The notes: generated from the letters alone by a model not told the origin. DNA of 64,000 nt from Bdellovibrionales bacterium (GCA_965217115.1 OZ244239.1:448001-512000); one strand, 5' to 3'. Shown: positions 9,435 to 38,256, counted from the first letter of the stretch. Translations and numbers: made by a program.

Positions 9435-10547
9435 TTACAATGAATTTTTTGTTTTCTTGAGAGTAGAGTCTCCAAGCATAAGAGACATACCAAATAAAGG
9501 AGGCATTTCATTTGATTTTAAACTAGGGTTTACATCAAATCTCTTAATGTCACCACTTTCTAAGTCAAGCCATGCATTTTCAACTCTACTAGTTAAAATG
9601 TCTTGATTCATCTTAGTGACATGAAATTTATCTTTTAGAAAAGTTCTAATCTCATTTATCTGTAACCGGGAACCATTATTACCACCAATAAGTGTTACTT
9701 CAAGTTGATGGTCTTCTGGTTTATCTTCATTTGATCTAGTAAGCTCTCCACCAGCCTTTTTGAAATGATAACTCATCTCATATATTGACCTTCTTATATT
9801 TGCTCCAGCATCGACATGGGCCAAATAACCAACTTTATTTTTGCGATCATATATAGCAACAATAATACATGGACCTGCACCAAAGGTTTTTAAGCCTTTT
9901 ATATTGCTGTCTTTATCATATTTTCTAATTGCATACCCTCTCTGTAAAACTCCCAAAGCATTGTCACTGTCTTCAATAGTTCCTCTTTCAAAATTTTTTA
10001 CAGGAACAATGGAGTTTTCCAAAACTCTTTTTTTTCTTTCACTTTCTAAAAACCTTTCGTGACGTGCGAGATTATCTGGGTCACATTTGGGATCAATATT
10101 AAGAGTTTTTGCGAGCCTTTCAACTCCCTTTAAGCCTCTAACTAAGGAAATTGCTACCTGTGGTGACTCTCCTGTACCTCTAATTCGGATTATTCTTTTA
10201 ATTTTATTTGAAGCATCTAATTCCATATAGATAAGATTGTTCTCAACACCTTCTATTCTTAAGGCTGCACTAGGATAATTAAGATAAATTGATGTCTTTG
10301 GAGAATATGTGAGAGTAACACCGTTTTGATTAAAGATGTTAGAGAAGTTCTCTGTACTCACTAACTTAGGATCAACACCAAAAACTTCAAAAAAATCTTC
10401 ACCAATAACCGTTGAGTCTGCTTTTAGGAGATCTTGAACCATTCCTTTTGAAGAAGGTGTTTTGTCAGTAACCTCATAAAGAGACTGTCCTTGCGCGGTT
10501 AAAGATAAAATCAGGCAGATACTATAGGTTTTTATACGAACATTCAT
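9435..10547 (-). CDS. Exported protein with C-terminal CheD/CNF1-like Cys-His deamidase domain
   Basis: Signal peptide. KTFGAGPCIIVAIYDRKNKVGYLAHVD and VTLIGG resemble the CheD-type T.LGSC.....YD....G...H and GG motifs. Confidence 0.6.
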   Translation of the reverse strand: MNVRIKTYSICLILSLTAQGQSLYEVTDKTPSSKGMVQDLLKADSTVIGEDFFEVFGVDPKLVSTENFSNIFNQNGVTLTYSPKTSIYLNYPSAALRIEGVENNLIYMELDASNKIKRIIRIRGTGESPQVAISLVRGLKGVERLAKTLNIDPKCDPDNLARHERFLESERKKRVLENSIVPVKNFERGTIEDSDNALGVLQRGYAIRKYDKDSNIKGLKTFGAGPCIIVAIYDRKNKVGYLAHVDAGANIRRSIYEMSYHFKKAGGELTRSNEDKPEDHQLEVTLIGGNNGSRLQINEIRTFLKDKFHVTKMNQDILTSRVENAWLDLESGDIKRFDVNPSLKSNEMPPLFGMSLMLGDSTLKKTKNSL

Positions 10548-10553
10548 ATAGCA

Positions 10554-10580
10554 TTATCGACAAAAACTAACTTTTGTTTA
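10554..10580 (-). promoter_or_regulatory. Sigma28 (FliA)-type promoter
   Basis: Minus strand TAAA-N15-GTCGATAA (consensus TAAA-N15-GCCGATAA), ending 6 nt before ATG 10547. Confidence 0.6.
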
Positions 10581-11039
10581 AGTTGTAATGGCTTTTATTA
10601 AATTTATATTTTCAAGCACTTAGCATTATCAAAGTTCAATCTCTTCAAGACATTGGTCTAGGCCTTTTAATTCTGTTGGCTTCCTCAAAATAGCATGAGG
10701 TCGATAGCGATAGTTTTTCTTATCCGTAGCATTGATGCCACCGGCAAAAATAATTATGGCTGGAGATATAAAAATTTCTTCAAATGAAGACTTTGAAACA
10801 AAAGTCACAATAGAGCTTCCAAAGGCTGTCAAACCAACGTGGGCCAGTTCTGAGATTAACTTTGATGGGATAGAAAACAGTGTGATCTTAGACGATGACG
10901 AATCCAGGGCTACATATCGCTGAGAAGGTGTCTTGCAAGAATTCATACTATATAATATAGTTAGCAATGGCTTTCAATATCCAATTTTACAAAGACTAGT
11001 AAAAACGATAGACTTGAATCTTCTTCCAAAGGGAATTAT

Positions 11040-12767
11040 ATGAAACTTAAAAAAATTGAAATATTTCGTTTTAGAAAATTCTTTAAGCGAACAACAGTTG
11101 ATATAGCTAATTACACTGTACTTGTTGGCCCTAATAACGGCGGAAAATCAACAATTTGTGATGCATTAGAAATTTTTTTTAAAAACCTGGATCATTTTAC
11201 TGATAAAACAATAGTATCTACTGATTTTAGACGTCGCCTCAGAACTAGGTTCTCGAGAAGAGGTGAAACAAGAAGAGCACGCTATGACTCAATACTTGAT
11301 TACCCAGTCGAGCAGAAAAAAGGTCGTATTTGGCCATCTGCTTTTAAAGGTACTTTTACGTTAACAGAGAATGAAGTTAAGCACTTCAATTCAATAGAGT
11401 GTCAATTGTACGAAGATAATGAATTTGAAATTGAGTTTTCTTGGTGTTATAAAACAAATAGATTTTTTCCTAATATTCCTAAAGGAGTTGATGAAGATAA
11501 GTACATTGAAGGAGTTAAACTTGTTGCGCAATCATTCAAGTTAATTGTCATTCCTGCAGTAAGGGATCAGTCTAACCTTAATTATAATCTTGAAACTTTG
11601 TTTGAAGAGGCTATTGAATCTAGGTTAGAGAAAAGTAATCAACTAAAGAAAATAAACAAACAACTTCATAAATTAGTAGATCCACAAATTAAAAAATTAA
11701 ATAACACCTTAGAAAAATCAATCAAACAACTAATACCAGAAATTAGGAAAGTAGAAATTGATTGGACTCTAGATGTATTACCAAGAGCTGATCTTGGAAA
11801 AGTTATTGTTGATGATGGCCAAGAAACCCCTCTTTCTTTAAAAGGAGATGGCATCAAAAACCTTGTTCAAATGGCTCAACTTACAAACTTGGCGGAAAAA
11901 GTCGATGACAAAAAAGAGGACTTAAATAGAAGAACAAGAATATTTATAATCGAAGAACCTGAAAGTCATCTTAATTCATCTTACCTTCATCCTCTAAGAG
12001 AAAAATTAAAAATCCTTGCAAATAATGACCAATTACTAATTACAACCCATTCTCCTGTTTTTGTTGAAATGTATAATAGAAATTCAATCAGACTAGTAAA
12101 AGAAGGTAACGCTACCATCCCTAAAGCCAAAACGAATGTCGCAGAAGCATTGGGAATAAAAATACAAGAAAATCTACGTTCCAATTTGATTGCAATAATA
12201 ACTGAAAGCAAGAAAGATATCTTACTAATCAAAAAATCATTTGAAATATCTGAAGGAGGAAGAGAGATATTACAATCCATTGACTTTATTTCTGCGGAGG
12301 GAGCATCAAAGATAATAAATATGAAAAGCTCTATTGATACCCTATATGAACACATTTTTATTTTATTAGATAATGATCACGAAGGAAAAGAAGCATTAAA
12401 AAATTTAACAAAATTTGGCTCTTTAAAATCTAATATATTTATAACTCCAAAGAATGATGGTTATAAATCTAGTGAACTCGAAGACTTTTATCCAATGACC
12501 GAAATACAGGATATGATAAAAGTTGTTTTCAAAAGGGACTACGAATTAGATTCCTTAAAATCTTCAAAAAAATTAAAAAAAGCTAAATTTAGTACATGGA
12601 TTGAACATTTTTCTAATAAACATGGCCTACCAATTAGTAGCGCTGGCGCTTTTAAAGCAATTTTATATGAGAGGCTAGAGGAGAAAAAAAACCTTCAGAT
12701 AACCGGCGATGGTCTTCAGTTTTTCCAAACAATGCTTTCTTCAATAAGACAGGCCATTGGACGTTAG
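11040..12767 (+). CDS. OLD-family ATP-dependent nuclease (ABC ATPase + TOPRIM)
   Basis: Walker A GPNNGGKS, signature KGDG, Walker B IEEPESHL, TTHSP H-loop. TOPRIM ITESKKD, LDNDHEG, ELED. Confidence 0.85.
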   Translation: MKLKKIEIFRFRKFFKRTTVDIANYTVLVGPNNGGKSTICDALEIFFKNLDHFTDKTIVSTDFRRRLRTRFSRRGETRRARYDSILDYPVEQKKGRIWPSAFKGTFTLTENEVKHFNSIECQLYEDNEFEIEFSWCYKTNRFFPNIPKGVDEDKYIEGVKLVAQSFKLIVIPAVRDQSNLNYNLETLFEEAIESRLEKSNQLKKINKQLHKLVDPQIKKLNNTLEKSIKQLIPEIRKVEIDWTLDVLPRADLGKVIVDDGQETPLSLKGDGIKNLVQMAQLTNLAEKVDDKKEDLNRRTRIFIIEEPESHLNSSYLHPLREKLKILANNDQLLITTHSPVFVEMYNRNSIRLVKEGNATIPKAKTNVAEALGIKIQENLRSNLIAIITESKKDILLIKKSFEISEGGREILQSIDFISAEGASKIINMKSSIDTLYEHIFILLDNDHEGKEALKNLTKFGSLKSNIFITPKNDGYKSSELEDFYPMTEIQDMIKVVFKRDYELDSLKSSKKLKKAKFSTWIEHFSNKHGLPISSAGAFKAILYERLEEKKNLQITGDGLQFFQTMLSSIRQAIGR

Positions 12768-12819
12768 ATTTTTTTAGATAAAATTAACTTTGAACATGTA
12801 GCGATTATAGGTCATTATT

Positions 12820-13683
12820 ATGAATCACGAGAAACTCAAATTATCCTTAATAATATTTATCGAAAAAATTAATAGCGGAATTTTCTCATATGAAGATGTT
12901 GTTACATTTCTTTCTAGTATTCGTTTTGAAGATGAGGTCTTCTACAGAGGTATTAGTGCCAACAATAACTACCTACTAGACATTGCTCACATTGCAGCCC
13001 ATCAATTGAAAGACAGAGGACTCATAGTAAAAAAGCTAAAAGGATTTAAAATTATATCACAGTATATTGAAGAGGCTAATTTAAATAAAACAAAAAACTT
13101 AACTATTGATAAATTCCCCAAAGAAACATTTGAGTCTATATGTTTCATTTATAATGATGATTTGAAGAGTTACTACAAAAAACAAAATAATTTTTATCAT
13201 CTAAAACAAAAGAGATCGTACATAAGAAAGGCAAAACGCATTTTAAGAGATGTATTCTGTACATATGATATGCTCTATCCTCTTGTTTCAAGAGATGACT
13301 TATATGAAGACTTCATAAAGTGTTTGAATTTTTTTAGAGGGAAGCTATCTTTGCCTGAAATTAATAAGATCAACGAAAACAAAAAAAATGAACTTTTACT
13401 TTGTTTCTCTTATGTATTATTTAAATCGAAAATCTATGTAGGAGAGGGCGAAGAATATATAGAACCTGATTTTTCTATATCTAGTGGTAAATTAAATTTA
13501 ATGTGTAAATTGAATTTTGTTAAACATCCTATGATAAATATGACAGTAGGAAATGGAGTTGGACTATCAGCCTGTGTCATAAATTTAGGTATAGATGCTG
13601 AATCTGTGAATTTTGATCCCGATTTTGAAAATATAATAATCCAGCGAGATGATGACAATGATCTTGTTTTTAGAGATCTGTAA
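12820..13683 (+). CDS. Hypothetical protein downstream of OLD nuclease
   Basis: 287-aa ORF, co-oriented, 52 bp after the OLD gene. No signal peptide; DIAHIAAHQLKDRG motif. Confidence 0.65.
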   Translation: MNHEKLKLSLIIFIEKINSGIFSYEDVVTFLSSIRFEDEVFYRGISANNNYLLDIAHIAAHQLKDRGLIVKKLKGFKIISQYIEEANLNKTKNLTIDKFPKETFESICFIYNDDLKSYYKKQNNFYHLKQKRSYIRKAKRILRDVFCTYDMLYPLVSRDDLYEDFIKCLNFFRGKLSLPEINKINENKKNELLLCFSYVLFKSKIYVGEGEEYIEPDFSISSGKLNLMCKLNFVKHPMINMTVGNGVGLSACVINLGIDAESVNFDPDFENIIIQRDDDNDLVFRDL

Positions 13684-25624: not shown

Positions 25625-26782
25625 ATGACCGATGCACGCCCTGCGCTCACAACCTTATCTGAAGACGAAATCGCTTTTCGTGATGCTATCCGCAGTTTTG
25701 CTGAATCAGAGATCAAACCCCTTGTCTCAAAGATGGACGAAGAAGCCAAAATGGATTCCACCCTTCTATCAAAGCTCTTTGAAATGGGCATTATGGGTAT
25801 AGAGACCCCTGAAGAATTTGGCGGAGCTGAAGCCAGTTTCACCCTCGCCTGCATCGCCGTTGAAGAGTTGGCACGTATTGATGCCTCCGTCAGCGTTCTC
25901 CTAGATGTTCAAAACACACTTGTCACCAACGCATTTTTACGTTGGGGAACACAGGCGCAGAAACAAAAGTATCTGACTAAAATGTCCAGTGAATGGATCG
26001 GAGCCTTTGCCCTGTCTGAGAGCATCAGTGGCTCAGATGCTTTCGCCTTAAAACTCCGTGGCGAAGACAAAGGAGATAAGTATATCTTAAACGGTCATAA
26101 ACTATGGATCACTAATGGCAATGAGGCCAGTGTTTTCCTTGTCTTTGCCAATATCAATCCCGATGAAGGATACAAAGGCATCACAGCCTTTATTGTCGAA
26201 AAAGATTTCCCCGGTTTCACAGTCGGAAAAAAAGAAGATAAACTAGGCATTCGCGCCAGCTCCACCTGCGAACTTATTTTTGAAAATTGTGAAGTTCCAA
26301 AAGAAAATGTCATTGGAGAGATCGGTAAAGGCTATAAAATCGCCATTGAAACTCTCAATGAGGGACGTGTCGGAATCGGCGCACAGATGATCGGTATCGC
26401 TCAAGGAGCCTATGAAGCTGCATTAAAATACACCAAAGATCGTGAGCAATTTGATAAACCCATTAGCAAATTCCAAGGAGTGCAATTTCAATTGGCAGAA
26501 ATGCGCACTGACCTTGAAGCCGCTCGTCTTATGGTCTACAACGCCGCTCGTTTGAAAGATGCCAATGAAGATTTTATTCAAGAAGCCGCCATGGCTAAAC
26601 TCCACTCTTCCCGCGTCGCTGAAAAAATCAGCTCCATGGCCGTTGATCTTTTTGGTGGCAATGGCTTTAGCAAGGAGTACCCCGTCGAAAAATTCTACCG
26701 CGATGCCAAGATCGGCCAAATCTACGAAGGCACCTCAAACATGCAACTACAAACCATCGCAAAAATGGAACTCGCCAAATAA
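25625..26782 (+). CDS. Acyl-CoA dehydrogenase (short/branched-chain type)
   Basis: FALSESISGSDA, KLWITNG, KLGIRASST, REQF, FYRDAKIGQIYEGTSNMQ. Confidence 0.95.
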   Translation: MTDARPALTTLSEDEIAFRDAIRSFAESEIKPLVSKMDEEAKMDSTLLSKLFEMGIMGIETPEEFGGAEASFTLACIAVEELARIDASVSVLLDVQNTLVTNAFLRWGTQAQKQKYLTKMSSEWIGAFALSESISGSDAFALKLRGEDKGDKYILNGHKLWITNGNEASVFLVFANINPDEGYKGITAFIVEKDFPGFTVGKKEDKLGIRASSTCELIFENCEVPKENVIGEIGKGYKIAIETLNEGRVGIGAQMIGIAQGAYEAALKYTKDREQFDKPISKFQGVQFQLAEMRTDLEAARLMVYNAARLKDANEDFIQEAAMAKLHSSRVAEKISSMAVDLFGGNGFSKEYPVEKFYRDAKIGQIYEGTSNMQLQTIAKMELAK

Positions 26783-26879
26783 CCCTCTCCCCACGATCCT
26801 CAAAGAGCAAGCCCTTCCAGCGATGCTCGAAGAGCAAGCCTTCCTTCCCTGCCTTCCTGCCTTCCTTACCTCCCCACCT

Positions 26880-27040
26880 CGCTGTTCCCAGTCAAGCGCA
26901 GATTTCAAAGCCTGTTTTTTAAATGGATCTTTGTTATTTAAGCGAGTTCGGATTGGTGCGATGCTCGCTTCAGCGAGCGCCGCTGCCAAACGAATGTCTG
27001 AGCTTAAATAATAAAGATCCATTTAAAAAACCTCCCTTTG
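26880..27040 (+). repeat. 161-bp palindromic element, copy 1 (hairpin 26914-27031)
   Basis: GTTTTTTAAATGGATCTTTGTTATTTAAGC...GCTTAAATAATAAAGATCCATTTAAAAAAC with apical GCTCGC-TTCA-GCGAGC. Shares a further ~110-bp right flank (to 27150) with copy 3. Confidence 0.95.
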
Positions 27041-27165
27041 AAAATTTTTCCCATCTTTTTTACCTTATTTCACACTGTCCTATTTTTGTTTAGACCCAGC
27101 AAACACCCTATGTTACAGTGCGTCATTATAGGTGCTTTAACTTTAACCATTGCAAGGAGAATAAA

Positions 27166-27759
27166 ATGAAAAAACTTATACTATTAGTAGCTCTGATGTT
27201 TACATCAGCGACATTTGCAGGAGGAGCTGCAGGCTTTTCTGTTGAGATTCTGAGTGTTTTAAAAAAAATCATGGTGGGGAAAAAGTCAGGGAACCTCACG
27301 ACACGACAGTCTTCAAGTGCAAATAAGGCTATAGAAGCTTCTTCAAGACTTGAAGGAGATGAAGTTATTGTAAACTTGTCTAAGGGACTTAATATTGACG
27401 AGCTACTTAAAGTAGAGGTTAACGCTCGTGGATGGAGCCAGATATCTGTGGAACTTTCTCACATGGGGCCTTCGGTAATAACTCAATTTTCATTAAAATC
27501 CATTGACAGCCTAGTCAAAAAAATTGTGAAATCTCACAAACTTCGTCCTGTCAGTATCATAAATAATAAGCGCCTTGACCCAAAGACTCTTTACAGCACT
27601 ACTAATAAGGACTTTACATATAATTTAGATATATCTAATGGTGGGTCTACTGTAAAACTCTCAACCTCATACCAAAATGAGATGATAGTAGGAAAAATTA
27701 TAGAAAACATCGGGTTCAACTTGGAAAAGTTTGCAGCCTCAGCAGCAGCTTTACTCTAA
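27166..27759 (+). CDS. Exported hypothetical protein (cargo 1)
   Basis: AAGGAG RBS; MKKLILLVALMFTSATFA signal peptide. Confidence 0.75.
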   Translation: MKKLILLVALMFTSATFAGGAAGFSVEILSVLKKIMVGKKSGNLTTRQSSSANKAIEASSRLEGDEVIVNLSKGLNIDELLKVEVNARGWSQISVELSHMGPSVITQFSLKSIDSLVKKIVKSHKLRPVSIINNKRLDPKTLYSTTNKDFTYNLDISNGGSTVKLSTSYQNEMIVGKIIENIGFNLEKFAASAAALL

Positions 27760-28048
27760 TTGTTGAGCCTTAAAGACTAGAAGGAGTTAGGTCAGTATGT
27801 GCTATTATCACTTACTCCTCTCTAGTCTTATATTGTAAAAACTAGCGCCACTGAGTATCAATACCAAAAAGATAAAAGATGTAACATTGGTGCTTTTTGG
27901 TATACATGTAAAAAAAAACAGTGCCTATCAAGAAAAGAAACGGGAAAGTTCCTTTTCTTTCAATAGATACTACTCCGGGAGATGATGGGGCTCTAACTTG
28001 TAAAAATTAAATGCCTCTCTAAAATAGCTCCCATAGAATAAGTTGAAC

Positions 28049-28123
28049 TGATTTTTTTGGTGGCGATGGCTTTAGCAAGGAGTGCTCCGTAACTATTATG
28101 AAGATGACCAGAACCGCCCTTAA
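28049..28123 (+). pseudogene. Chimeric scar: acyl-CoA dehydrogenase 3' fragment joined to ankyrin gene 3' end
   Basis: 28049-28090 matches 26644-26685 (38/42); 28090-28123 matches 33121-33154 (31/34). Confidence 0.8.
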
Positions 28124-28168
28124 TACTCATCTTAAAAACAAGTTCACTTCCTTGAACTAAAAAAATAA

Positions 28169-28190
28169 AAAGGCCACCAAAGTGGCCTTT
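28169..28190. terminator. Probable intrinsic terminator
   Basis: AAAGGCCAC-CAAA-GTGGCCTTT; paralogous hairpin at 34668-34691. Confidence 0.65.
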
Positions 28191-28220
28191 GTTATTTGAG
28201 CCAGTTCGAATTGGTCCGAC

Positions 28221-28500
28221 GCTCAAAGAGCAGCCCTCCCCTCCCCTCCCCTGCGATGCTCAAAGAGCAGCCCTTCCCTGCTGCCCTATCTCCCTGCGAT
28301 GCTCAAAGAGCAAGCCCTTCCCTGCTGCCCTGTCTCCCTGCAATGCTCAAAGAGCAGCCCTTCCCTGCTGCCCTATCTCCCTGCGATGCTCAAAGAGCAA
28401 GCCCTTCCCTGCTTCCCTGTCTCCCTGCGATGCTCAAAGAGCAAGCCCTTCCCTGCTGCCCCTGTCTCCCTGCGATGCTCAAAGAGCAAGCCCTTCCCTG
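28221..28500 (+). repeat. Tandem array of ~43-45-bp units, each with a GCTC-AAA-GAGC mini-hairpin
   Basis: GCTCAAAGAGC at 28221, 28258, 28301, 28345, 28388, 28432 and 28477. Linkers are near-identical, not unique spacers. Confidence 0.9.
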
Positions 28501-28528
28501 CGTCCCTTCCTTCCCTCCCTCCCCGCCC

Positions 28529-28688
28529 CGCTGTTCCCAGTCAAGCGCAGATTTCAAAGCCTGTTTTTTAAATGGGTCTTTGTTATTTAAGCGAGTTCGG
28601 ATTGGTGCGATGCTCGCTTCAGCGAGCGCCGCTGCCAAACGAATGTCTGAGCTAAATAATAAAGACCCATTTAAAAAACCTCCCTTTG
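28529..28688 (+). repeat. 160-bp palindromic element, copy 2
   Basis: Near-identical to copy 1, with a paired change GGATC/GATCC to GGGTC/GACCC and a 1-nt deletion. Confidence 0.95.
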
Positions 28689-28810
28689 CCCAAATCTAAG
28701 CACCGCGTTAGGGTGCATAAAACTTGTCCTCCCCCCAAATCCTGATACTAATTAATTTAGTTAAAAAATTATTTTAGATAAACCATATTAAACAAAAAAA
28801 GGCCTCAAAG

Positions 28811-29740
28811 ATGAAGATACTATTATTAATGAGTCTATCCCTATCCTCTCCCCTATTAGCTACCGCAAAAATGATACCACTAGAGTGTTTTCAGATAATA
28901 GGAACTGTTCTTACAAAGTATACTTGTAATTTCGAGGCCATTACGATTCCTGATAGTACAACTAATATTGCTGGGCGAGCATTTGCAAATAAGAACCTAA
29001 CATCTGTTAATATTCCTGATAGTGTGGCTACTATTAGTTTTAAGGCATTTACATCTAATAACCTAACATCTGTTAATATCCCTGATAGTGTGACTCTTAT
29101 TGGTTCTGATGCCTTTGCATATAATGACCTAACATCTGTTGATATCCCTAATAGTGTATCTAGTATCGGTTTTGGAGCATTTGCATATAATAAACTAACA
29201 TCTGTTAATATTTCCAGTAGTGTGAACTATATTGGTGAAAAGGTATTTACAGATAATAATCTAACATCTATTACTATTCCTGACAGTGTGTCTATTATTG
29301 GTTCTGATGCATTTGCAAAGAATAGTCTAAAATCTGTGACCATTCCTAAGAGCGTGACCTATATCGGTAGCGGAGCATTTGCAAATAATAAGCTAAAGTC
29401 TGTTACTATTTCTGATAGCCTGATTTCTATTAGTCCTGTGACATTTAAAAAGAATAGTCTAACATCTGTTACTATTCCTAAGAGCGTGACCTATATCGGT
29501 AGCGGAGCATTTGCAAATAATAAACTAAAGTCTGTTACTATTCCTGATAGTGTGACTGTTATTGATATCAGTGCATTTGAAGACAACAAGCTGAGGTCTC
29601 TTACTATTCCAAGTAGCGTCACTGAAATTCGTGAAGGTGCCTTTACTAGTAATAGAATCACCCGTGTTAAATTGTCAAAATCAACACACATTAGTCATGG
29701 TGCCTTTGACAAAGGCGTAACCTATGAATTCACCGATTAA
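28811..29740 (+). CDS. BspA-type leucine-rich repeat (LRR_5) exported protein
   Basis: Signal peptide; about 11 22-aa repeats L.SV.IP.SV..IG..AF..N. Confidence 0.92.
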   Translation: MKILLLMSLSLSSPLLATAKMIPLECFQIIGTVLTKYTCNFEAITIPDSTTNIAGRAFANKNLTSVNIPDSVATISFKAFTSNNLTSVNIPDSVTLIGSDAFAYNDLTSVDIPNSVSSIGFGAFAYNKLTSVNISSSVNYIGEKVFTDNNLTSITIPDSVSIIGSDAFAKNSLKSVTIPKSVTYIGSGAFANNKLKSVTISDSLISISPVTFKKNSLTSVTIPKSVTYIGSGAFANNKLKSVTIPDSVTVIDISAFEDNKLRSLTIPSSVTEIREGAFTSNRITRVKLSKSTHISHGAFDKGVTYEFTD

Positions 29741-29742
29741 GC

Positions 29743-30270
29743 AAACCCTCCTTATTTAAGGTTTTGCAAGAAAACATTCCAGAAAATGCAGTCATCCCCG
29801 TAGATGTTGGAAACAACACCTATTCTTTTGGAAGATACTTTGAATGTAAGCAACAAAGTATTTTAATGTCTGGCTACTTAGGCTCTATTGGTTTTTCCTT
29901 CCCCGCAGCTATGGGTGCATGGGCTGCTGTAAAGGGCAAAAGAAAAGTTGTCTCTATTAGTGGAGACGGTGGCTTTGGCCAATACATGAATGAACTAAAT
30001 ACGGCCGTAAAATATAAAATGAATATCACTCATATCTTATTGAATAACTTTGAATTAGGAAAAATCTCTAAAGAACAACTAGCAGGTGATTGGAATATCT
30101 GGCAAACCTCCCTACACAACCCTAGTTTTGCAAAGTATGCAGAAAACTGCGGAGCCCTAGGAATACAAGTTACCAAGCTTAGCGAATTAAAAGGAGCTTT
30201 AGATCAAGCACTAGCCCACACCCAAGGCCCCTCTCTAATAGAAATTGTCACCGACGCAAAATTAATATAA
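29743..30270 (+). pseudogene. 5'-truncated thiamine-pyrophosphate enzyme (pyruvate oxidase/acetolactate synthase-like C-terminal domain only)
   Basis: DVGNNT, SGYLGSIGFSFPAAMGA and SGDGGF...LLNN. The reading frame begins right after the LRR stop with no RBS; N-terminal and central domains are missing. Confidence 0.8.
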
Positions 30271-30522
30271 ACCACAATCAAATTCTAAATAAAAACCAAT
30301 ACAGTTCTCTTCACCAGTCTCAAACTCAAGTTTGTTGTTATTTACCCCTCCCCCAATGCCCGAAGAACAAGTTCTTCTCCAAGCCTCGGAGGAATATCTC
30401 CAGCACCGAAAACTTTACAGCCAAAGATTGAATTACTTGCAGTCTGAGGGGAACTTATGTATTGGTACTAAAGCTCTCGGCTAGTCAATGGTGTAGATAA
30501 AAAATAATAAAAATTATAGGAG

Positions 30523-31695
30523 ATGAATCTAATGGGCTTTTACAATGACTACTTAGATAAGAATATGGACGCCAAAAGCATAGCCGTAGAAAGAAAAAAT
30601 CAATTAGAAAAAATTCAAAAAATAAGAGGAAGAGATATCATAGTCTTTGCCTCTGACCTAACAAAGAATAACGCTCCTATTTCAATAGAGTATTCTGATT
30701 TGCTACCCTTAGAGGACCAAATCAGTAATCTTAAGAAAAAGAAAATAGATCTAATTCTAGAAACTCCAGGGGGCTCTGGTGAAGTCTCTGAAGATATTGT
30801 TGATTTACTTAGAAATAGATTTTCAGAAGTTAATATTATCATCCCCGGAAGTGCAAAAAGTGCTGGAACTATAATTGCCATGGCATGTAATGAAATTCTT
30901 ATGGGTCCAGGCTCTTCATTGGGGCCTATTGATGCACAGCTGAGGATAAACGGACAGGTACGCTCAGCGGATACCATTTTAGGGGAGTTTGAAAAAATAA
31001 AGAAGGAAATAGAGGATACAGGGACTTTAAACAAAGCTTATATTCCGATGCTCCAACAGCTATCTCTAGGGCAACTGGAACATGCTCGTAATGCAAAGAA
31101 TTTTGCTATCACATTAGTATCTGAATGGTTAGTGAAATATAAATTTCAAAATTGGACTCAACATTCATCCAATGGAAAAAAAGTCACAATAAAAGAAAAA
31201 GAAAAGAGGGCAGAAGACATTGCTAATAACTTAAGTAAGCATACCCAATGGCTTACGCATGGCCGATCTATAAAAATGCCAGATTTAAGAAAGATGAAAT
31301 TAGAAATTACCGATTATTCAACTGACAAAGTGTTACATGAAGCGATTTCTCGATATTACATCCTTCTTCAAATGACATTTCAATCTACTAATCAATATAA
31401 AATTTTTGAAACTTCAACTTCTCAAATTAATCGCTACATTGGTATAGCCACCCCCCCTCTTCCTTCTCTTGAGCAAAATAACAAGCAATTCCTTATAGTT
31501 GAGGCAAAATGTGGCAATTGTACAACTATTACTAAGCTTCAAGCTAATTTAGACCGATCAATACCTATAAAGCAGGGACACAAAAAATTTCCTAAAGATA
31601 ATTTGTTTATATGCCCTAAGTGTAGAAAAACTTCTAATATACTCGCCTTAAGGCAACAAATTGAAGCACAGGAAAAAAAGAAAATTGTAAGCTAA
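30523..31695 (+). CDS. SDH-family (ClpP/S49-like fold) serine protease with C-terminal Cys4 zinc-ribbon-like domain
   Basis: LETPGGSGE, AKSAGT, LGPIDAQ, THGRSI; C-terminal CGNC...CPKC; AGGAG RBS. Confidence 0.8.
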   Translation: MNLMGFYNDYLDKNMDAKSIAVERKNQLEKIQKIRGRDIIVFASDLTKNNAPISIEYSDLLPLEDQISNLKKKKIDLILETPGGSGEVSEDIVDLLRNRFSEVNIIIPGSAKSAGTIIAMACNEILMGPGSSLGPIDAQLRINGQVRSADTILGEFEKIKKEIEDTGTLNKAYIPMLQQLSLGQLEHARNAKNFAITLVSEWLVKYKFQNWTQHSSNGKKVTIKEKEKRAEDIANNLSKHTQWLTHGRSIKMPDLRKMKLEITDYSTDKVLHEAISRYYILLQMTFQSTNQYKIFETSTSQINRYIGIATPPLPSLEQNNKQFLIVEAKCGNCTTITKLQANLDRSIPIKQGHKKFPKDNLFICPKCRKTSNILALRQQIEAQEKKKIVS

Positions 31696-31702
31696 CTATG
31701 TT

Positions 31703-31909
31703 ATGGTACAAGAGGTTATGGTGAATGATATTAAATTTAAAATTATAAATAATGATAGCGTTATAGACTCTCTCACAGAGAATCTCACGCAAGACACTAG
31801 TATTTCTGAAATATGCTCAGAATCTCAAGAAGTGGCAGACACACTAAAAGACTTGAACCAAAATATATTAAGCCATGATAGTGATGTTATTATTTATACA
31901 AATTCTTAG
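31703..31909 (+). CDS. Small acidic hypothetical protein
   Basis: 68-aa ORF 7 bp after the protease; alternative ATG at 31718 after GAGG. Confidence 0.5.
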   Translation: MVQEVMVNDIKFKIINNDSVIDSLTENLTQDTSISEICSESQEVADTLKDLNQNILSHDSDVIIYTNS

Positions 31910-32176
31910 CACTCCTACTAATTATTTAGAATCTGCTTTTTCTGCCCGTGGCATTTTAGTCAGCTAGGGTGTAAATTAAATGTTTTTTAATCTATAAAAA
32001 AACTCCACAACTAAGCCATTTTTGACTTTTTAAAAGAAATACTTAGATATGCATCATGACTTAGCCCCCAAAACACCCTTCATTATTTAAGCAAGCCCGC
32101 TCGCTACGATGCTCAAAGAGCGAGCCCTATCTATCTATCTTTCTTTCCCTACCTCCGCCCCGCTCCGCTCCGCCCC

Positions 32177-32337
32177 CGCTGTTCCCAGTCAAACGCAGAT
32201 TTCAAAGCCTGTTTTTTAAATGGATCTTTGTTATTTAAGCGAGTTCGGATTGGTGCGATGCTCGCTTCAGCGAGCGCCGCTGCCAAACGAATGTCTGAGC
32301 TTAAATAATAAAGATCCATTTAAAAAACCTCCCTTTG
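32177..32337 (+). repeat. 161-bp palindromic element, copy 3
   Basis: Near-identical core. Right flank to 32446 is shared with copy 1; left flank is shared with copy 4. Confidence 0.95.
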
Positions 32338-32497
32338 AAAATTTTTCCCATCTTTTTCACCTTATTTCACACTGCCCTATTTTTTTTAGACCCAGCAAAC
32401 ACCCTATGCTACAGTGCATCATTATAAGTCCTTTAACTTTAACCATGCCATTGATTTTATTCTCAAAATTGGTGTCATCAATAAGCAGGAGAAAACC

Positions 32498-33154
32498 ATG
32501 AAAGCTTTATTATTAATTGTTACACTCTTATCTTCATTTCCATTACTTGCTGAACTGAAGGTAGTTGGAGAGTACAAGGGTATTCCAATTGTACGATCGA
32601 CTCCAAATCAGCGGAGAATCAATTCAAGACTGAGAGCTTGTACAAAAAAGTATTTCCAATTAGCTATCATAGCGGTAAGTCCCGAGAAATCGGTTACAGA
32701 AACAACGTGGGTTTTAGATAATTGTCCTAAGATAGATATCAATCAAGAAATGTTTTCTCCTTATCGAGCTACTCCCAAGAGTGTCTATCATTGGAAGCCG
32801 ACCCATAGTGCAGTCTTTCAGGGAAAAGTGGGATTGCTGGAACTGCTCATTGATAGAGGTGCAGACTTAGACGCAATAGCAAAGATCAAATGGAATCGTC
32901 ATAATGCTAGTTATTACTCACCCTTAACCTATGCTCTTCTCCGGAAGGAAGCCGAGGTCGCATTGGCCTTAATTAAAGGCGGAGCTGATGTGAATATGAG
33001 GGTTTCACAACAACTTTTCGATAGAGCTCACTTACCATTAGAGAGAGCCAGGGTTTTTGGAAATAAAAGAGTCATAAAAGCCCTACTCGCTGCAGGTGCG
33101 GGTAAAGATGACGATAAATATAACTATCATGAAGATGACCAAAATCGCCCTTAA
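32498..33154 (+). CDS. Exported ankyrin-repeat protein
   Basis: AGGAG RBS, signal peptide; PTHSAVFQGKVGLLELLIDRGAD, SPLTYA...ALIKGGADVN, ALLAAGA. Confidence 0.85.
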   Translation: MKALLLIVTLLSSFPLLAELKVVGEYKGIPIVRSTPNQRRINSRLRACTKKYFQLAIIAVSPEKSVTETTWVLDNCPKIDINQEMFSPYRATPKSVYHWKPTHSAVFQGKVGLLELLIDRGADLDAIAKIKWNRHNASYYSPLTYALLRKEAEVALALIKGGADVNMRVSQQLFDRAHLPLERARVFGNKRVIKALLAAGAGKDDDKYNYHEDDQNRP

Positions 33155-33208
33155 AACTAAAATAACAAAAATAACCTATTACTTGAATAATATAAACAGG
33201 AGATTAAA

Positions 33209-34612
33209 ATGAAAAAAATTATTACACCTATTTTCTTTACAATTATGAGTTTGATGCTTTTGACTCAAGAATCTAACGCCAAATCGAACTGTCGTGATGG
33301 TGCTTCCGAGATCTTTCTTTTTGACGCTGACAGAGGGAATTACAACTGCATAAAGGATGTCACGACCGTGGATTTAGATGGCGATCAGCGACCAGACATT
33401 GTCTATTTACTGGAAACAGGAATCAAGGAATACTATCATGATCGTGTGTACAAGATCGTTTGGAGAAAAAACATGGGTGATGGAAAATTTTCTTCCACAC
33501 AGGTTATTCGCTCTATAACACGAAATACCTTCTTTGAAACTAGAGATGATTTCCTTCCTGAACAGAAGAACCGCTCTGGATTCTCTTTTCCTTTTGAAAA
33601 AGCTAACTTGGTCTTAAAAGATTTGGACAAGGATGGATTAGTAGATATCATTTTTTCTTTAGGAAGAGGTATCTATAAGAATAGTAACTCCTGGGAGGCT
33701 TATAATGAGGTCGTTTGGTATAAGAATAATGGAAGAATGTCTTTTTCTGAAAAAAAATCACCGTTTGCCATCAAGTCTGGCGTTATAGCATCTCTCACTA
33801 TAGAGGACTATAATGGAGATGATATTTTAGATATTGGTTATACTGCTATTGGGGATGATATAATTATTCCTAGAGGGCTGAACGGAGTTTTTTTAGGAAA
33901 AGGGAAAGGCCTCTTTCACCCAGACGCTGGTTCTATCCGCACTGGTTCCCATGAAAATGATTTTAAATCATATACAGCTGTGGGTAAATTCTCAACTGAT
34001 CCTTATCAAAGTGTCGTTTATCTTTATAATAGGTCAGGCAATAACAATCGTTACAAGCCTCTTTTAATTGCTGGAAACATTGGTTTCGACAAGGATGGTC
34101 GTATACATCTTCCCACTGAATCATATCAACTTTCTTACTTTAAGAGTGGTCAGAGTGGCGGAGTAACCAAGCCGACTGTCAGAGATTTCAATGTTGATGG
34201 GTTGTCCGATCTTTTGGTTAACATAGATGGTGTGGGTGCTTATATCTATACTTTTGTGAGTAATGATTTCTTACCCTATGAAGACAAGATCACAGACCGC
34301 TACACAACATCTGTTAGAGCGATAGATGTCGATGGAGATGGCTTGTTAGATATTGTTTATTCGTCTTATGAAATCTCCCTCTTTTTCTTTGACGTGCACC
34401 GTTTAGCATGGAGAAAGAATCTAGGTTCTAGAAAATTTTCTTCTGAAAGACTTATTAAAAAGCCTTCTTCTTACACTGAATTAGCCGCAGTAGGAGATTT
34501 TAATGGCAATGGAATGATCGATTTAGTAACTCTCTCCGTAAAAGGAAAGGACAAAAAATCAAGTCTGACCATCCATAACGATCTTATTCCAAAATCAAAC
34601 AGCAAGAACTAA
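33209..34612 (+). CDS. Exported FG-GAP/VCBS repeat protein
   Basis: Repeated DxDGDGxxD motifs (DLDGDQRPD, DLDKDGLVD, DYNGDDILD, DVDGDGLLD, DFNGNGMID); signal peptide. Confidence 0.88.
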   Translation: MKKIITPIFFTIMSLMLLTQESNAKSNCRDGASEIFLFDADRGNYNCIKDVTTVDLDGDQRPDIVYLLETGIKEYYHDRVYKIVWRKNMGDGKFSSTQVIRSITRNTFFETRDDFLPEQKNRSGFSFPFEKANLVLKDLDKDGLVDIIFSLGRGIYKNSNSWEAYNEVVWYKNNGRMSFSEKKSPFAIKSGVIASLTIEDYNGDDILDIGYTAIGDDIIIPRGLNGVFLGKGKGLFHPDAGSIRTGSHENDFKSYTAVGKFSTDPYQSVVYLYNRSGNNNRYKPLLIAGNIGFDKDGRIHLPTESYQLSYFKSGQSGGVTKPTVRDFNVDGLSDLLVNIDGVGAYIYTFVSNDFLPYEDKITDRYTTSVRAIDVDGDGLLDIVYSSYEISLFFFDVHRLAWRKNLGSRKFSSERLIKKPSSYTELAAVGDFNGNGMIDLVTLSVKGKDKKSSLTIHNDLIPKSNSKN

Positions 34613-34667
34613 ACTATCTCCAGAAGAAACTAAAGACGAGGATGACGTCGACCAACTAAGAAAACAC

Positions 34668-34691
34668 AAAGGCCACTCCAAAGTGGCCTTT
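34668..34691. terminator. Probable intrinsic terminator
   Basis: AAAGGCCACT-CCAA-AGTGGCCTTT after the FG-GAP gene. Confidence 0.65.
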
Positions 34692-34812
34692 GTTACTTTT
34701 AAGCAAGCCCGCTTGCTACGATGCTCAAAGAGCGAGCCCTTTTCTTTTTTCTTTTTTCTTTTTTTTTCTTTCCTTTTCTTTTTCTTTTCCTTCCCTACCT
34801 CCGCTCCGCCCC

Positions 34813-34973
34813 CGCTGTTCCCAGTCAAACGCAGATTTCAAAGTCTGTTTTTTAAATGGATCTTTGTTATTTAAGCGAGTTCGGATTGGTGCGATGCTCG
34901 CTTCAGCGAGCGCCGCTGCCAAACGAATGTCTGAGCTTAAATAATAAAGATCCATTTAAAAAACCTCCCTTTG
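34813..34973 (+). repeat. 161-bp palindromic element, copy 4
   Basis: Near-identical core. Right flank CCCAAATC is shared with copy 2; ends 10 bp from the icmF stop. Confidence 0.95.
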
Positions 34974-34983
34974 CCCAAATCAA

Positions 34984-37900
34984 CTAAAGGTTGCGTCGAT
35001 ACTCCCCCCCCACCCCATACAAAGCCCCAGAAATCTGCCCCAAACTACAGTGCCTCGTAGCCGACATCAAAGCCTCAAAAATATTCTCCCCTCTTAAAGC
35101 CACAGATTTTAGATTTTCAAGCTCTCTCTCCCCATCGACTTTATGGGACTCCTTAAAATTTAAGCAGTTCTTTAATTGGGAGTTTTTTTCTGCAGCAGAG
35201 GCCCTTGCCATCTTGATTTTCTCAGGGACATATCCTGCCTTTAAGGTTTCAGGGTCAATAAAAGTATTCACGCCCACCACTGGGTACTCACCGCTGTGTT
35301 TTAAATGCTCATAGTGCATCGATTCTTCTTGGATCTTCGACCTTTGATACTGCGTCTCCATCGCCCCCAAAACACCACCGCGCTCATTGATCTTCTGGAA
35401 CATTTCCAAAACCGACTCTTCAACGAGATCTGTTAACTCTTCAAAGAAAAAGCTTCCTTGATTGGAGTTTTCATTCACTGCCGCGCCAAACTCTTTATTG
35501 ATAATTATTTGTATAGCCATCGCACGTCTGACCGATTCTTCTGTCGGTGTGGTGATAGCCTCATCATAGGCATTCGTGTGCAAAGAGTTGCAATTATCAT
35601 AGGTCGCAAGCAACGCTTGCAGTGTCGTGCGAATGTCATTGAATTGAATTTCCTGGGCATGGAGAGAACGTCCACTCGTTTGAATATGATATTTTAACTT
35701 TTGCGAACGCTCATTGGCACCATAAACATCTCTCATCGCTACAGCCCAAATACGCCGCGCCACACGACCTATCACCGAATACTCAGCATCCATACCATTA
35801 CTAAAAAAGAACGACAGGTTGGGAGCAAACTCATCAATGTCTAACCCTCTAGCCAAATAATACTCCACATAGGTAAAGGCATTGGCCAAAGTAAACGCCA
35901 CCTGACTAATAGGGTTCGCGCCCGCCTCAGCAATGTGATAACCAGAGATACTCACTGAATAAAAATTTTCTACTTTATTTTTGACAAAATATTGGGCAAT
36001 ATCTCCCATCATTTTCAATGCAAAATTGATCGAAAAAATACAGGTATTCTGTCCCTGGTCTTCTTTAAAAATATCAGCTTGAACGGTTCCACGGACACTG
36101 GTTAAAGCTTCCTGTCGCGTCTCTTCCATCTCTTGTTTTGTAAGGTCACGCTTCCATTCTTTTTCTTTTTCCTCCACCAGTTGATCAATAGCGGCGTTAA
36201 AGAAAAAAGCCAATATTATTGGCGCTGGTCCATTGATCGTCATACTCACACTGGTCTTGGGATCACATAAATCAAAACCAGCGTAGAGTTTTTTCATATC
36301 CTCAAGAGTGCAAATACTCACGCCACTCTCACCCACCTTGCCATAAATATCAGGGCGTGCATCAGGGTCTTGACCATACAAAGTCACACTATCAAAAGCC
36401 GTCGACAATCTCTTTGCTGTCTCCGTGTCCGCTAAGTAATGAAACCTTTTGTTTGTTCTCTCGGGAGTTCCCTCACCTGCAAACATTCTCTTTGGGTCCT
36501 CTCCCTCTCTTTTCAAAGGAAATACACCCGAAGTGAATGGAAAAGCCCCAGGAAAATTCTCCAAGCGCAAAAATCGCAGTCGATCCCCCCAGTCCGTGTA
36601 TCGAGGGACAGACACTCTCCTGATCTTTGAACCACTCAAGGATTCACGGTAAAGATTTTGACGAACCTCCTTCCCTCGAACCTTAAACACATATTCATCA
36701 CTCTTATAAGTATTTATTAAACTCTGCCAAGAATTTAATAATTCAAGATGACTTCCCAAATCTTTTCTCAAAGACTCTTTATTATGATGAGAACCCTTAA
36801 TCGAGGCTCCCACTGACTCTATTTTTTCTATTGCTCCTAAGAGAGATGCTTTCTCAGATAACTCTTCCGTGGTTTTTCTATAGTTCCTGATATTTTTAAC
36901 AACCTCAGCTAAATAATTCTGACGGTCTGGGGGAATAATAATATGTTCATTGGAACTCACCAAACTATCTTTATACTCATCTTTCAATTGCCACTGACGT
37001 TCTTGATCCCCCTTTGCCAGCGAATCTATCAACCCAAGAAATAGGCGATTTACTCCTCCATTATTAAATTGAGCCGCCTCTGTTAAATAAATAGGAAGAG
37101 TCTTGGGGTCTTGACTAAATAATTTCCGCGAACGCTGGTACTGTTTAGCCACATCTCGAACAGCATCTTCCGCCCCTCGACGATCAGCCTTGTTAACAGC
37201 GATAAGATCTGCGTAGTCAATCATGTCAATTTTTTCTAACTGACTTTGGGCCCCAAACTCAGAGGTCATCACATACAAACTCAAATCTGCAAATTCTGTG
37301 ATCGCAGTGCTCGCCTGACCAATTCCCGATGTCTCTGCAATCACCAAATCAAAGTCACACTTTTTTAAAAAACGAAGAATCTCAGGCAGTGAGTTGGCCA
37401 CCTCATTGCCAGACCCCCTCGATGCCACCGAACGCATATACACACGATCACGACTCAAAGAGTTCATACGAATACGATCACCCAGCAATGCTCCACCTGT
37501 TTTACGTTTAGACGGGTCCACACACACCACGGCTATTTTCTTATCACTGTAGGCATTTAAAAAACGATGGAGAAGCTCATCAATCAAACTTGATTTTCCA
37601 GCCCCACCAGTTCCTGTCATACCTAAAACCAGAGGCTCATTTTTAGGTTTGTAGAAACTCCCTAATTGTTGCAAATACGGCTTTAAACCTTCACCGCCGT
37701 CTGCATGATTTCTATTTTCAATCGCCAACAAGGCTCTACCCAAAATAACACTTGGCACAGGATCAGATTCTCCAAAGCTTTGACCCTCCTCTATCTCCTT
37801 AACTTTTTCCAACACATCAAAATCACACTCACGCATGATCATCTCAATCATTCCCTCTAAACCCAAGCGACGCCCATCATCTGGGTGAAATATCTGTGCA

Positions 37901-38256
37901 ATGCCGTACTCTTCCAAAGCCTTCTTCTCTTCATGGATGATAACGCCACCGCCACCACCAAAAATACGCACATATCCGGCACCACACTGATCAAGTAAGT
38001 CCTTCATGTACTTAAAATATTCCATGTGTCCGCCCTGATAAGAACTCACACATATTCCCTGGGCCCCTTCTTGGATAGCCGTTTTCACCACTTCATAAAC
38101 AGACCGATTATGGGCTAAATGAATAACCTCAGCCCCCATCTCCTGAAGAATTCTACGCATAATATTAATACTCGCATCATGGCCATCAAACAACGAGGCT
38201 GCCGTTACGATGCGAATATTCTTTTCTGCTTGATATGCCAAAATAAAATCTCCCAC
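34984..38256 (-). CDS. icmF: Fused isobutyryl-CoA mutase / MeaI GTPase (AdoCbl-dependent)
   Basis: FDGHDASINIMRR B12-binding motif, GTGGAGKSS GTPase, RMFAGEG and SLHTNAYDEA mutase motifs; 1090 aa. Confidence 0.95.
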   Translation of the reverse strand: MGDFILAYQAEKNIRIVTAASLFDGHDASINIMRRILQEMGAEVIHLAHNRSVYEVVKTAIQEGAQGICVSSYQGGHMEYFKYMKDLLDQCGAGYVRIFGGGGGVIIHEEKKALEEYGIAQIFHPDDGRRLGLEGMIEMIMRECDFDVLEKVKEIEEGQSFGESDPVPSVILGRALLAIENRNHADGGEGLKPYLQQLGSFYKPKNEPLVLGMTGTGGAGKSSLIDELLHRFLNAYSDKKIAVVCVDPSKRKTGGALLGDRIRMNSLSRDRVYMRSVASRGSGNEVANSLPEILRFLKKCDFDLVIAETSGIGQASTAITEFADLSLYVMTSEFGAQSQLEKIDMIDYADLIAVNKADRRGAEDAVRDVAKQYQRSRKLFSQDPKTLPIYLTEAAQFNNGGVNRLFLGLIDSLAKGDQERQWQLKDEYKDSLVSSNEHIIIPPDRQNYLAEVVKNIRNYRKTTEELSEKASLLGAIEKIESVGASIKGSHHNKESLRKDLGSHLELLNSWQSLINTYKSDEYVFKVRGKEVRQNLYRESLSGSKIRRVSVPRYTDWGDRLRFLRLENFPGAFPFTSGVFPLKREGEDPKRMFAGEGTPERTNKRFHYLADTETAKRLSTAFDSVTLYGQDPDARPDIYGKVGESGVSICTLEDMKKLYAGFDLCDPKTSVSMTINGPAPIILAFFFNAAIDQLVEEKEKEWKRDLTKQEMEETRQEALTSVRGTVQADIFKEDQGQNTCIFSINFALKMMGDIAQYFVKNKVENFYSVSISGYHIAEAGANPISQVAFTLANAFTYVEYYLARGLDIDEFAPNLSFFFSNGMDAEYSVIGRVARRIWAVAMRDVYGANERSQKLKYHIQTSGRSLHAQEIQFNDIRTTLQALLATYDNCNSLHTNAYDEAITTPTEESVRRAMAIQIIINKEFGAAVNENSNQGSFFFEELTDLVEESVLEMFQKINERGGVLGAMETQYQRSKIQEESMHYEHLKHSGEYPVVGVNTFIDPETLKAGYVPEKIKMARASAAEKNSQLKNCLNFKESHKVDGERELENLKSVALRGENIFEALMSATRHCSLGQISGALYGVGGEYRRNL

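Follow-up and report, generated by a model that had tools for sequence, protein, structure and literature searches.

We use computational sequence analysis to study four structured repeats that lie between the convergent genes for an acyl-CoA dehydrogenase and an IcmF-type fused isobutyryl-CoA mutase (icmF) in a 64,000-nt stretch of DNA, called the window throughout (C1:448001-512000 of a Bdellovibrionota genome assembled as one contig of 2.17 Mb, 39.6% GC). We find that the four elements belong to a family of 161-171-nt structured interspersed repeats in Bacteriovorax-like Bdellovibrionota. The family is previously undescribed, to the extent that full-text literature searches on repeats in Bacteriovorax and Bdellovibrio found no paper on such an element. 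A preliminary description of the window had proposed a dedicated gene-capture locus; the array looks instead like the product of recombination between repeats, with no dedicated capture platform. On balance we favor a reading in which the family is orphaned, akin to REPINs (hairpins formed by two inverted repetitive extragenic palindromic, or REP, sequences) or to the ends of IS200 elements, and in which its copies seed local duplication, gene conversion and accretion.

A structured repeat family at gene ends

The preliminary description had noted four co-oriented elements of 160-161 bp, and a repeat search recovers them as four direct copies of a 214-nt repeat (window positions 26877-27090, 28526-28739, 32174-32387 and 34810-35023), here called c1 to c4. 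Alignment narrows these to a common core unit (c1 to c3 as in Table 1, c4 at 34813-34978) with an invariant block of about 161 nt; the four are 0.958-0.994 identical to one another, and elsewhere in the genome the highest identity of any copy to them is 0.878. Searching the whole genome with a profile of the four window copies (nhmmer) gives 109 matches, which reduce to 76 non-overlapping copies in 20 clusters. In most of these copies the element reaches about 8 nt beyond the end first assigned to it, to a conserved AAATCAA. All 76 copies lie outside real genes and overlap only with short open reading frames (ORFs) inside the repeats themselves, where calls outside the window rest on a simple, crude ORF caller. 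Within clusters the median identity is 0.914 (101 pairs), compared with 0.653 for pairs from different clusters (1669 pairs), from which we conclude that the copies have been amplified or homogenized locally, with no recent spread from a single master.

The full unit consists of a 5' box, CGYTGTTCCCAG, with about 20 further nt, a hairpin, and a 3' tail that ends in ...TTTGCCMAAATCAA in most clusters. The AAATCAA end is present in at least 10 clusters and is different in others, while the 5' flank is always C-rich or a 12-nt tandem repeat. The hairpin is centered on a conserved asymmetric core some 62 nt long, and the outer stem around it varies by cluster yet remains complementary; in three copies the apical loop holds an extra hairpin. 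The 5' box and the 3' tail are unrelated to each other, the inverted repeat is subterminal, and the flanks carry no duplication. In five copies (C1:529103, 529345, 533819, 1925598 and 1925776), and in one copy of a relative (G020, L036:499-612), the core is inverted relative to the 5' box, a flip-flop as expected from recombination between the hairpin arms. Tandem repeats of 12 nt of the 5' box stand beside many copies, always on the 5' side, and number at least 12 units at C1:1814944-1815186; slippage, protein-binding iterons and abortive copying are possibilities for their origin.

In 19 copies, spread over 15 of the 20 clusters, the 3' end of the element comes within 31 nt of an opposite-strand gene's stop codon, and the genes abutted in this way are nearly all housekeeping genes (icmF, purF-like, KdsD-like, topoisomerase VI A, polA, rlmL-like, lipB, yceG, cyclophilin, hldA-like and others). 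For some of these genes the stop codon is supplied by the TCA in the element tail. At C1:534193-537208, which encodes subunits A and B of topoisomerase VI, an enzyme uncommon in bacteria, the stop codon of the A gene is inside the element tail. Several clusters hold no cargo and consist of 3-8 copies in tandem (118 kb has three, 351-352 kb six and 1924-1926 kb seven, for example), and in others genes space the copies. We also considered orientation relative to replication (origin at about 1.265 Mb and terminus at about 0.18 Mb by GC skew), and set it aside: the clusters have no consistent bias and the cores can flip.

Every window copy folds into a hairpin of about 118 nt, with a free energy of -75.6 kcal/mol on the + strand (z -11.1; 0 of 200 shuffles fold as well) and -67.7 kcal/mol on the - strand, which makes the + strand about 8 kcal/mol more stable. 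For 46 distinct copies from this genome, four relatives and metagenomes, RNAalifold gives 36 pairs, 22 of them with compensatory changes. The 19 pairs of the core comprise 700 Watson-Crick, 157 G:T and 5 A:C cells, and the outer stems of this genome 25 G:T versus 3 A:C. Because the G:T pairs are almost confined to one strand, the structure appears to have been selected on one strand, as RNA or as single-stranded DNA.

How far does the family extend? At the DNA level the core alone is found in 4 of 30 relatives, which belong to other families, at 74-91% identity and each time with a different flanking inverted repeat; the IcmF proteins of the same genomes are 62-70% identical. An exact core pattern occurs at 11 loci in genome contigs, of which the 7 with a full core are all from Bdellovibrionota metagenome-assembled genomes (MAGs) and the other 4, in other phyla, are chance matches. 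The same pattern gives no hits in viral contigs and 36 metagenome loci, about 28 of them with most of the core. With a covariance model (R1), the element is detected in 8 of 61 genomes of the order, in at least 61 (this genome), 27, 12, 7, 7, 3, 1 and 1 copies, and the distribution is patchy and multi-copy and extends over 7 of its 13 families. Over a phylum-wide sample the same model finds the element in 5 of 151 genomes, all from this order. It was not found in the nearest relative (G001, same family), whose assembly in 670 contigs makes this no evidence of absence. Single copies in relatives and metagenomes typically occupy the gap between two convergent genes. At two MAG or metagenome loci (L040 and L079) the element runs up to the 3' end of an opposite-strand tRNA gene, and at L040 roughly the last 22 nt of the tRNA recur, inverted, as the left arm of a palindrome some 55 bp long (both judged by eye).

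A hairpin kept on one strand could also be a structured RNA with a host function: a 3' untranslated stabilizer, a bidirectional terminator, a protein-binding RNA at convergent junctions, or a 5' untranslated module for secreted-protein genes, in which case the arrays would come from an RNA module duplicated along with genes. The conserved G:U pairs and the U:A to U:G changes on one strand only fit this idea, as do the variable apical loop with its three hairpin insertions and the lone copies in convergent-gene gaps of other genomes. One internal loop, adjacent to the outer stem, has GA on its 5' side and, on its 3' side, a bulge of 4 nt together with GA (alignment columns 27-35 and 79-92); judged by eye, it may match the kink-turn consensus. 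The element and its leader are also better conserved than the genes behind them, at 95-99% identity next to unrelated genes in the window and at about 90% versus 46% amino-acid identity of the genes at C1:427-430 kb. However, Rfam 15 gives no match at E <= 1 (window 26000-36000, both strands), no U-tract follows the hairpin on either strand, and the folded strand is antisense to the abutting housekeeping gene in the 19 cases above. Tandem runs without an intervening gene, a presence in 8 of 61 genomes that would be odd for a host function, and copies that adjoin transposase genes in G020 (below) point the same way, and we consider a host RNA unlikely. A scan for promoters and terminators inside the element returned weak consensus matches only.

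The acyl-CoA dehydrogenase-icmF islet and its counterparts

Inspection of the window array (Table 1) bears out much of what was first noticed there. The elements separate unrelated cargo, whose genes Pfam confirms and all of which is on the + strand. Of the seven cargo ORFs, described at first as mostly exported, four have signal-peptide-like N-termini (judged by eye, no predictor). The GC content at third codon positions (GC3) is 0.242 in the leucine-rich-repeat gene and 0.281 in the Clp-like gene, against 0.41-0.45 in the flanks. The layout of an element with leader, cargo, a GGCCAC terminator and a second element does occur twice, but the two modules, c1...c2 and c3...c4, are paralogous and not independent captures. 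Common to both are the element, the leader (c1, c3), the 3' relic of an ankyrin gene, and the terminator with a degenerate half-element ahead of c2 and c4. Specifically, c1 and c3 have 120 nt in common beyond the element (local alignment score 205 versus a shuffle maximum of 29), while the sequence common to c2 and c4 extends just 8 bases past it, and each of the four copies has a degenerate half-element and a pyrimidine-rich tract on its upstream side. In place of the ankyrin gene body, module 1 contains the orphan ORF along with unrelated debris and 42 nt that come from the acyl-CoA dehydrogenase gene, and the FG-GAP gene is absent from it. The elements are 96-99% identical and the relic 72%, which implies either gene conversion between neighbors or parts of different ages. 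By blastn, the cargo DNA of the islet is not found elsewhere in the genome, save for two unrelated small repeats and the FG-GAP paralogue.

Several smaller features accompany the array. At 28217-28511 a 44-nt unit with a GCTC-AAAG-AGC mini-hairpin is repeated in tandem about six times. These repeats seem to have arisen from the element's left half in truncated form, and the motif also stands as a single copy ahead of all four window elements. A decayed icmF 3' end as the source of the c1/c3 leader was tried and is not established, with p of about 0.02-0.05 (uncorrected) in a DNA local alignment and E > 1 for a profile of 21 IcmF C-termini. Another small repeat family is represented at 30380-30488, in the gap that separates the Clp-like gene from the thiamine-diphosphate enzyme fragment; it recurs at C1:1877884, 810351 and 1571172, and short-read contigs from two runs stop inside it, at 30433/30472. 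Over the ankyrin and FG-GAP genes (32564-33878), minor-depth contigs from two runs carry many substitutions, a sign that the sample may include another allele, strain or close paralogue. The reads available are four sequencing runs of one sample, as contigs only, which break at element copies; their joints trace to other repeat copies and are thus uninformative on circles, reordering or assembly error.

Comparison of the interval across relatives had been proposed as a check. In 8 of the 30 relatives the convergent pair lies less than 10 kb apart on one contig, with gaps of 434, 1392, 3196, 3257, 4233, 5471, 9522 and 9612 nt. The element is in none of these eight gaps, and other genes are there. 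The convergent arrangement is ancestral, and the interval is shown to be a variable site; the relatives come from other families, and hence the comparison gives no strain-level dynamics.

Variable cargo is linked to the element elsewhere as well. In 10 other clusters, 24 of the 32 ORFs enclosed by copies have no Pfam family, and the flanks are almost all housekeeping genes; the eight with a family include a RES/Xre toxin-antitoxin pair, DUF188, LysR, AHSA1, TehB-like and PMT_2. The Xre-family antitoxin and RES-domain toxin are at C1:531619-532795, as cargo in the element cluster at 527-534 kb. Mean GC3 of cargo is 0.319 versus 0.360 for the genome. Cargo within a cluster is often paralogous (75%, 96%, 46% and 44% identity), and in the cluster at C1:1814-1823 kb a 1.13-kb module is duplicated at 97% and each repeat unit joins the element to some 88 nt from the neighboring gene's 3' end. 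The pattern is also seen in another family: in the relative G005, elements abut the ends of gcvH, spoVR, atpE, glmM-like and sensor kinase genes, and they enclose ORFs of 163, 224, 322 and 194 aa without a family, plus a weak NlpC/P60 match. We also note a protein family of eight members (about 177-191 aa, no Pfam family; C1:428145, 429454, 753490, 788216 and 1560497-1566832), two of which are inside an element cluster, where element and leader are far better conserved than the genes. A scatter over the genome with no link to variable cargo had been named as what would speak for an ordinary repeat; the scatter is there, but the link to cargo is real.

Could repeats and orphan genes simply share a location? 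Convergent junctions, which have no promoters, may tolerate insertions, so that selfish hairpins and acquired orphan genes would gather there independently. Lone copies between convergent genes without cargo in other genomes fit such a co-location, and so do the relatives' acyl-CoA dehydrogenase-icmF gaps with other genes and no element. Yet copies recur in direct orientation between modules, some with copies of a flanking gene end, and cluster variants are 96-99% identical. The element therefore belongs to the unit that duplicates or recombines, and co-location without a mechanism is decidedly unlikely.

Table 1. Features of the window array and its two flanking genes (window positions).
Feature	Position	Strand	Evidence
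Acyl-CoA dehydrogenase, left housekeeping flank	25625..26782	+	Pfam Acyl-CoA_dh_N/M/1; orthologues 71-79% identical in 29/30 relatives
Degenerate half-element (mini-hairpin GCTC-AAAG-AGC motif, 2 copies) and pyrimidine-rich tract 5' of c1	26787..26879	+	repeat families, sequence reading
Element c1 (type A): 5' box and long hairpin around the conserved core	26880..27045	+	covariance model R1, 114.9 bits
Leader common to c1/c3, ~95% identical, up to downstream gene start	27041..27150	+	alignment, repeat family
Orphan ORF, signal-peptide-like N-terminus	27168..27759 (ORF called 27118-27759)	+	no Pfam family; GC 0.377
42-nt piece of acyl-CoA dehydrogenase gene interior, 90% identical to 26644-26685	28049..28090	+	repeat family, blastn
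Relic: ankyrin-type gene 3' end and downstream spacer, 72% identical to 33121-33196	28090..28165	+	blastn, 89% over 38 nt
GGCCAC hairpin terminator, module 1	28169..28190	+	terminator scan, repeat family
Degenerate left half-element, then ~six 44-nt tandem repeats derived from its mini-hairpin (apparent)	28179..28511	+	repeat families
Element c2 (type B)	28529..28693	+	covariance model, 113 bits
BspA-type leucine-rich-repeat protein, 66-nt periodic repeats, signal-peptide-like N-terminus	28811..29740	+	PF13306, 1.3e-82
Thiamine-diphosphate (TPP) enzyme fragment, 168 aa, C-terminal TPP-binding domain only (TPP_enzyme_C)	29764..30270	+	PF02775 only
ClpP-like SDH-type serine protease homologue	30523..31695	+	PF01972, PF00574; GC3 0.281
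68-aa ORF	31703..31909	+	no Pfam family
Degenerate half-element and pyrimidine-rich tract 5' of c3	32086..32176	+	repeat families
Element c3 (type A)	32177..32342	+	covariance model, 114.9 bits
Second leader copy	32338..32446	+	alignment, repeat family
Ankyrin-repeat protein; likely true start near 32498, beginning of signal-peptide-like N-terminus	32414..33154	+	PF00023, PF12796
FG-GAP repeat protein, signal-peptide-like N-terminus; 40%-identical paralogue at C1:299010 (blastp)	33209..34612	+	PF13517
GGCCAC hairpin terminator, module 2	34666..34693	+	terminator scan
Degenerate half-element and T/C-rich tract 5' of c4	34698..34812	+	repeat families
Element c4 (type B); 3' end AAATCAA abuts icmF stop codon (other strand)	34813..34983	+	alignment
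IcmF-type fused isobutyryl-CoA mutase, right housekeeping flank	34984..38256	-	PF01642, PF03308, PF02310; orthologues in 30/30 relatives

Mobilizing enzymes and the origin of the arrays

The window holds no recombinase or transposase, as had been stated: a Pfam scan of 48 window ORFs gives no match to such a family. The search for a matching enzyme, also proposed at the outset, comes back empty in this genome and with a candidate in a relative. Here there are 0 matches to PF01797 (Y1), PF01548 (IS110) and PF07282 (TnpB), and tblastn with the Y1 protein of G020 gives nothing better than E = 8. Three tyrosine recombinases (PF00589) are encoded, none in the window or near a cluster; two score like XerC/XerD, and the third, generic and of 367 aa, is no integron integrase, with 46.2 bits on TIGR02249 (cut-off 265) and 19.9 on NF011946 (cut-off 435). 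In G020, on the other hand, five of the seven element copies lie 46-260 nt from a gene for a Y1 HUH transposase. This protein has 179-194 aa and an HIH motif and scores 25-29 bits on PF01797, under the NCBIfam IS200 cut-off. One of the Y1 genes sits between two direct element copies, one further gene has a half-element upstream (by eye), and among seven paralogues (81-84% identical) conservation is confined to the ORF, as in RAYTs, the tyrosine transposases associated with REP sequences. Across the order, PF01797 is found in 47 of 61 genomes and homologues of the G020 protein in 33 of 61, and both counts include the element carriers G005, G011, G016 and G184.

From these data we infer both a partnership with a Y1 enzyme and recombination as the process that builds the arrays. 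The element is most likely the hairpin that a Y1 (HUH) transposase from the IS200/RAYT superfamily recognizes, as the one relative suggests, and would work like a REPIN or like a miniature element derived from an IS200/IS605 end. This lineage would have lost every Y1 transposase gene, which would leave its 76 copies unable to transpose. Sitting at housekeeping-gene 3' ends, the copies would act as local homology tracts and long palindromes, and unequal crossing-over, tandem duplication, gene conversion and deletion between neighbors would build and reshuffle islets of low-GC, mostly orphan or secreted-protein genes, of which the acyl-CoA dehydrogenase-icmF islet is one example. The missing Y1 gene and the strong divergence between clusters fit decay after loss of the transposase, and near-identity within clusters, paralogous modules and gene-end copies fit local unequal crossing-over, duplication, conversion and deletion. 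Homologous recombination between elements, already raised in the preliminary description, is thus the best-supported way in which the array was shaped. Parts of one preprint describe RAYT loss followed by slow REPIN decay (bioRxiv 10.1101/2021.07.10.451892).

A number of points weigh against this reading. The Y1 link rests on one genome, G020; in G005 (12 copies, 17 Y1 genes), G011 (7 and 7), G007, G021 and G135 no copy is beside a Y1 gene, and the nearest is 5-12 kb away. Even in G020 the Y1 genes are multi-copy and the element occurs in all four orientations and sides relative to the gene, which makes it equally a possible preferred insertion target. A plasmid-borne transposase may lie outside the one-contig assembly. 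The element is 3-5 times longer than classical REPs and has no GTAG/CGTC head, and neither a target duplication nor an empty site was found among the copies, so that transposition stays a proposal. Either RNA or single-stranded DNA would account for the one-strand structure, and a decay model alone predicts less than a set of 76 copies that are nearly identical locally.

The element-bounded blocks might instead be true mobile cassettes, in which a Y1 HUH transposase (in relatives, formerly here) uses two direct or inverted copies as ends and moves genes as single-stranded DNA to other parked copies. This is rather improbable; if true, predatory bacteria would have, for their secreted and orphan genes, a counterpart of the integron that is distributed and works without an integrase. 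Integron-like or site-specific capture, with the element as recombination site and a recombinase acting in trans on element-bounded cassettes, has for it the co-oriented elements between unrelated, co-oriented, low-GC genes, the gene-end copies at the module seams of C1:1814-1823 kb (the expected footprint of repeated integration at one site), the element-bounded orphan genes between housekeeping genes in G005, and the range of the acyl-CoA dehydrogenase-icmF gap from 434 nt to 9.6 kb, but is very unlikely given a genome with neither an integron integrase nor a Y1, IS110 or TnpB gene, a conserved center with variable arms, 20 clusters (many runs without cargo) instead of one array, islets with no cargo DNA in common, modules that are paralogous duplicates, and eight relatives' intervals free of the element. 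The dedicated gene-capture locus first proposed is likewise not supported.

If, as we favor, the family is an orphaned REPIN-like or IS200-end-like one, Bacteriovorax-like predators have a REPIN-like system whose hairpin is unusually large. With its transposase gone and 76 copies left that homogenize locally and form the seams of islets, this genome would offer a natural experiment, and the process would be a route for gain, duplication and loss of accessory genes in genomes that almost lack mobile elements of the classical kind. Studies of how HUH enzymes recognize hairpins would also find a clean substrate in the conserved core. Apart from the array, the window encodes at 416-13683 a TIR-domain protein, HamA with a 1056-aa DEAD/ResIII helicase (a Hachiman-like pair), an AAA_15/AAA_21 ATPase and ORFs without a family, likely an anti-phage defense island.

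Comparison with known systems

Miniature inverted-repeat transposable elements of the classical type have terminal inverted repeats and target-site duplications, and neither is seen in this family. ERIC/IRU, Correia (CREE/NEMIS) and Neisseria NIME/dRS3 repeats and minimal mobile elements resemble it as imperfect intergenic palindromes of 100-160 nt, as arrays near surface-protein genes, and as variable blocks between housekeeping genes that are exchanged by homologous recombination. They differ in that the ends here are not inverted repeats, there is no TA duplication, the core is conserved across families, and there is a link to Y1.

The preliminary description had drawn a likeness to integrons. 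The attC sites of integrons, chromosomal cassette arrays and CALINs (clusters of attC sites lacking integrases) are indeed imperfect palindromes of about 60-140 nt between co-oriented, unrelated and often orphan genes, with species-specific repeat homogeneity and folding on one strand. An attC site has conserved outer R''/R' boxes and a variable central part, however, and our element has the reverse, a conserved center with variable arms. Furthermore, there is no IntI, whose gene normally lies beside the array, and there are no RYYYAAC/GTTRRRY boxes, the blocks hold 1-4 ORFs where an integron has one repeat per gene, and the 20 clusters include several gene-free tandem runs.

The ends of IS200/IS605 elements and of palindrome-associated transposable elements (PATEs) are strand-specific subterminal hairpins that are recognized as single-stranded DNA, without terminal inverted repeats, and such elements insert 3' of a fixed tetra- or pentanucleotide and leave no target duplication. 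Our element likewise has a strand-specific subterminal hairpin, no terminal inverted repeats and no visible target duplication, and the TCAA at its 3' end resembles the right-end cleavage site of IS608. The hairpin is on one (top) strand, as in PATEs, by the 157 G:T versus 5 A:C count, a result that RNA would give equally. Different here is that there are no separate left-end and right-end hairpins. No autonomous copy with conserved ends is evident; one G020 Y1 gene stands between two direct copies, and the seven paralogues have the ORF alone in common.

For the REPIN-RAYT system we draw on parts of Bertels & Rainey 2011 (PMC3116915) and of PMC5581495, and for classical REPs, which have 20-40 nt with a GTAG or CGTC head, on part of PMC3733652. 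The unit here, at 113-170 nt, combines an asymmetric core of 62 nt with a stem that varies, rather than two inverted 20-40-nt REPs, and its 5' box and stems are without the GTAG/CGTC head. The Y1 genes of G020 are multi-copy and this genome is without any Y1 gene, and copies here are strongly clustered and bracket genes. What the two have in common is the extragenic, multi-copy hairpin repeat with compensatory changes in its arms, the position at gene 3' ends, a Y1 HUH transposase gene flanked by repeats (here in G020), and, on the reading we favor, decay after transposase loss.

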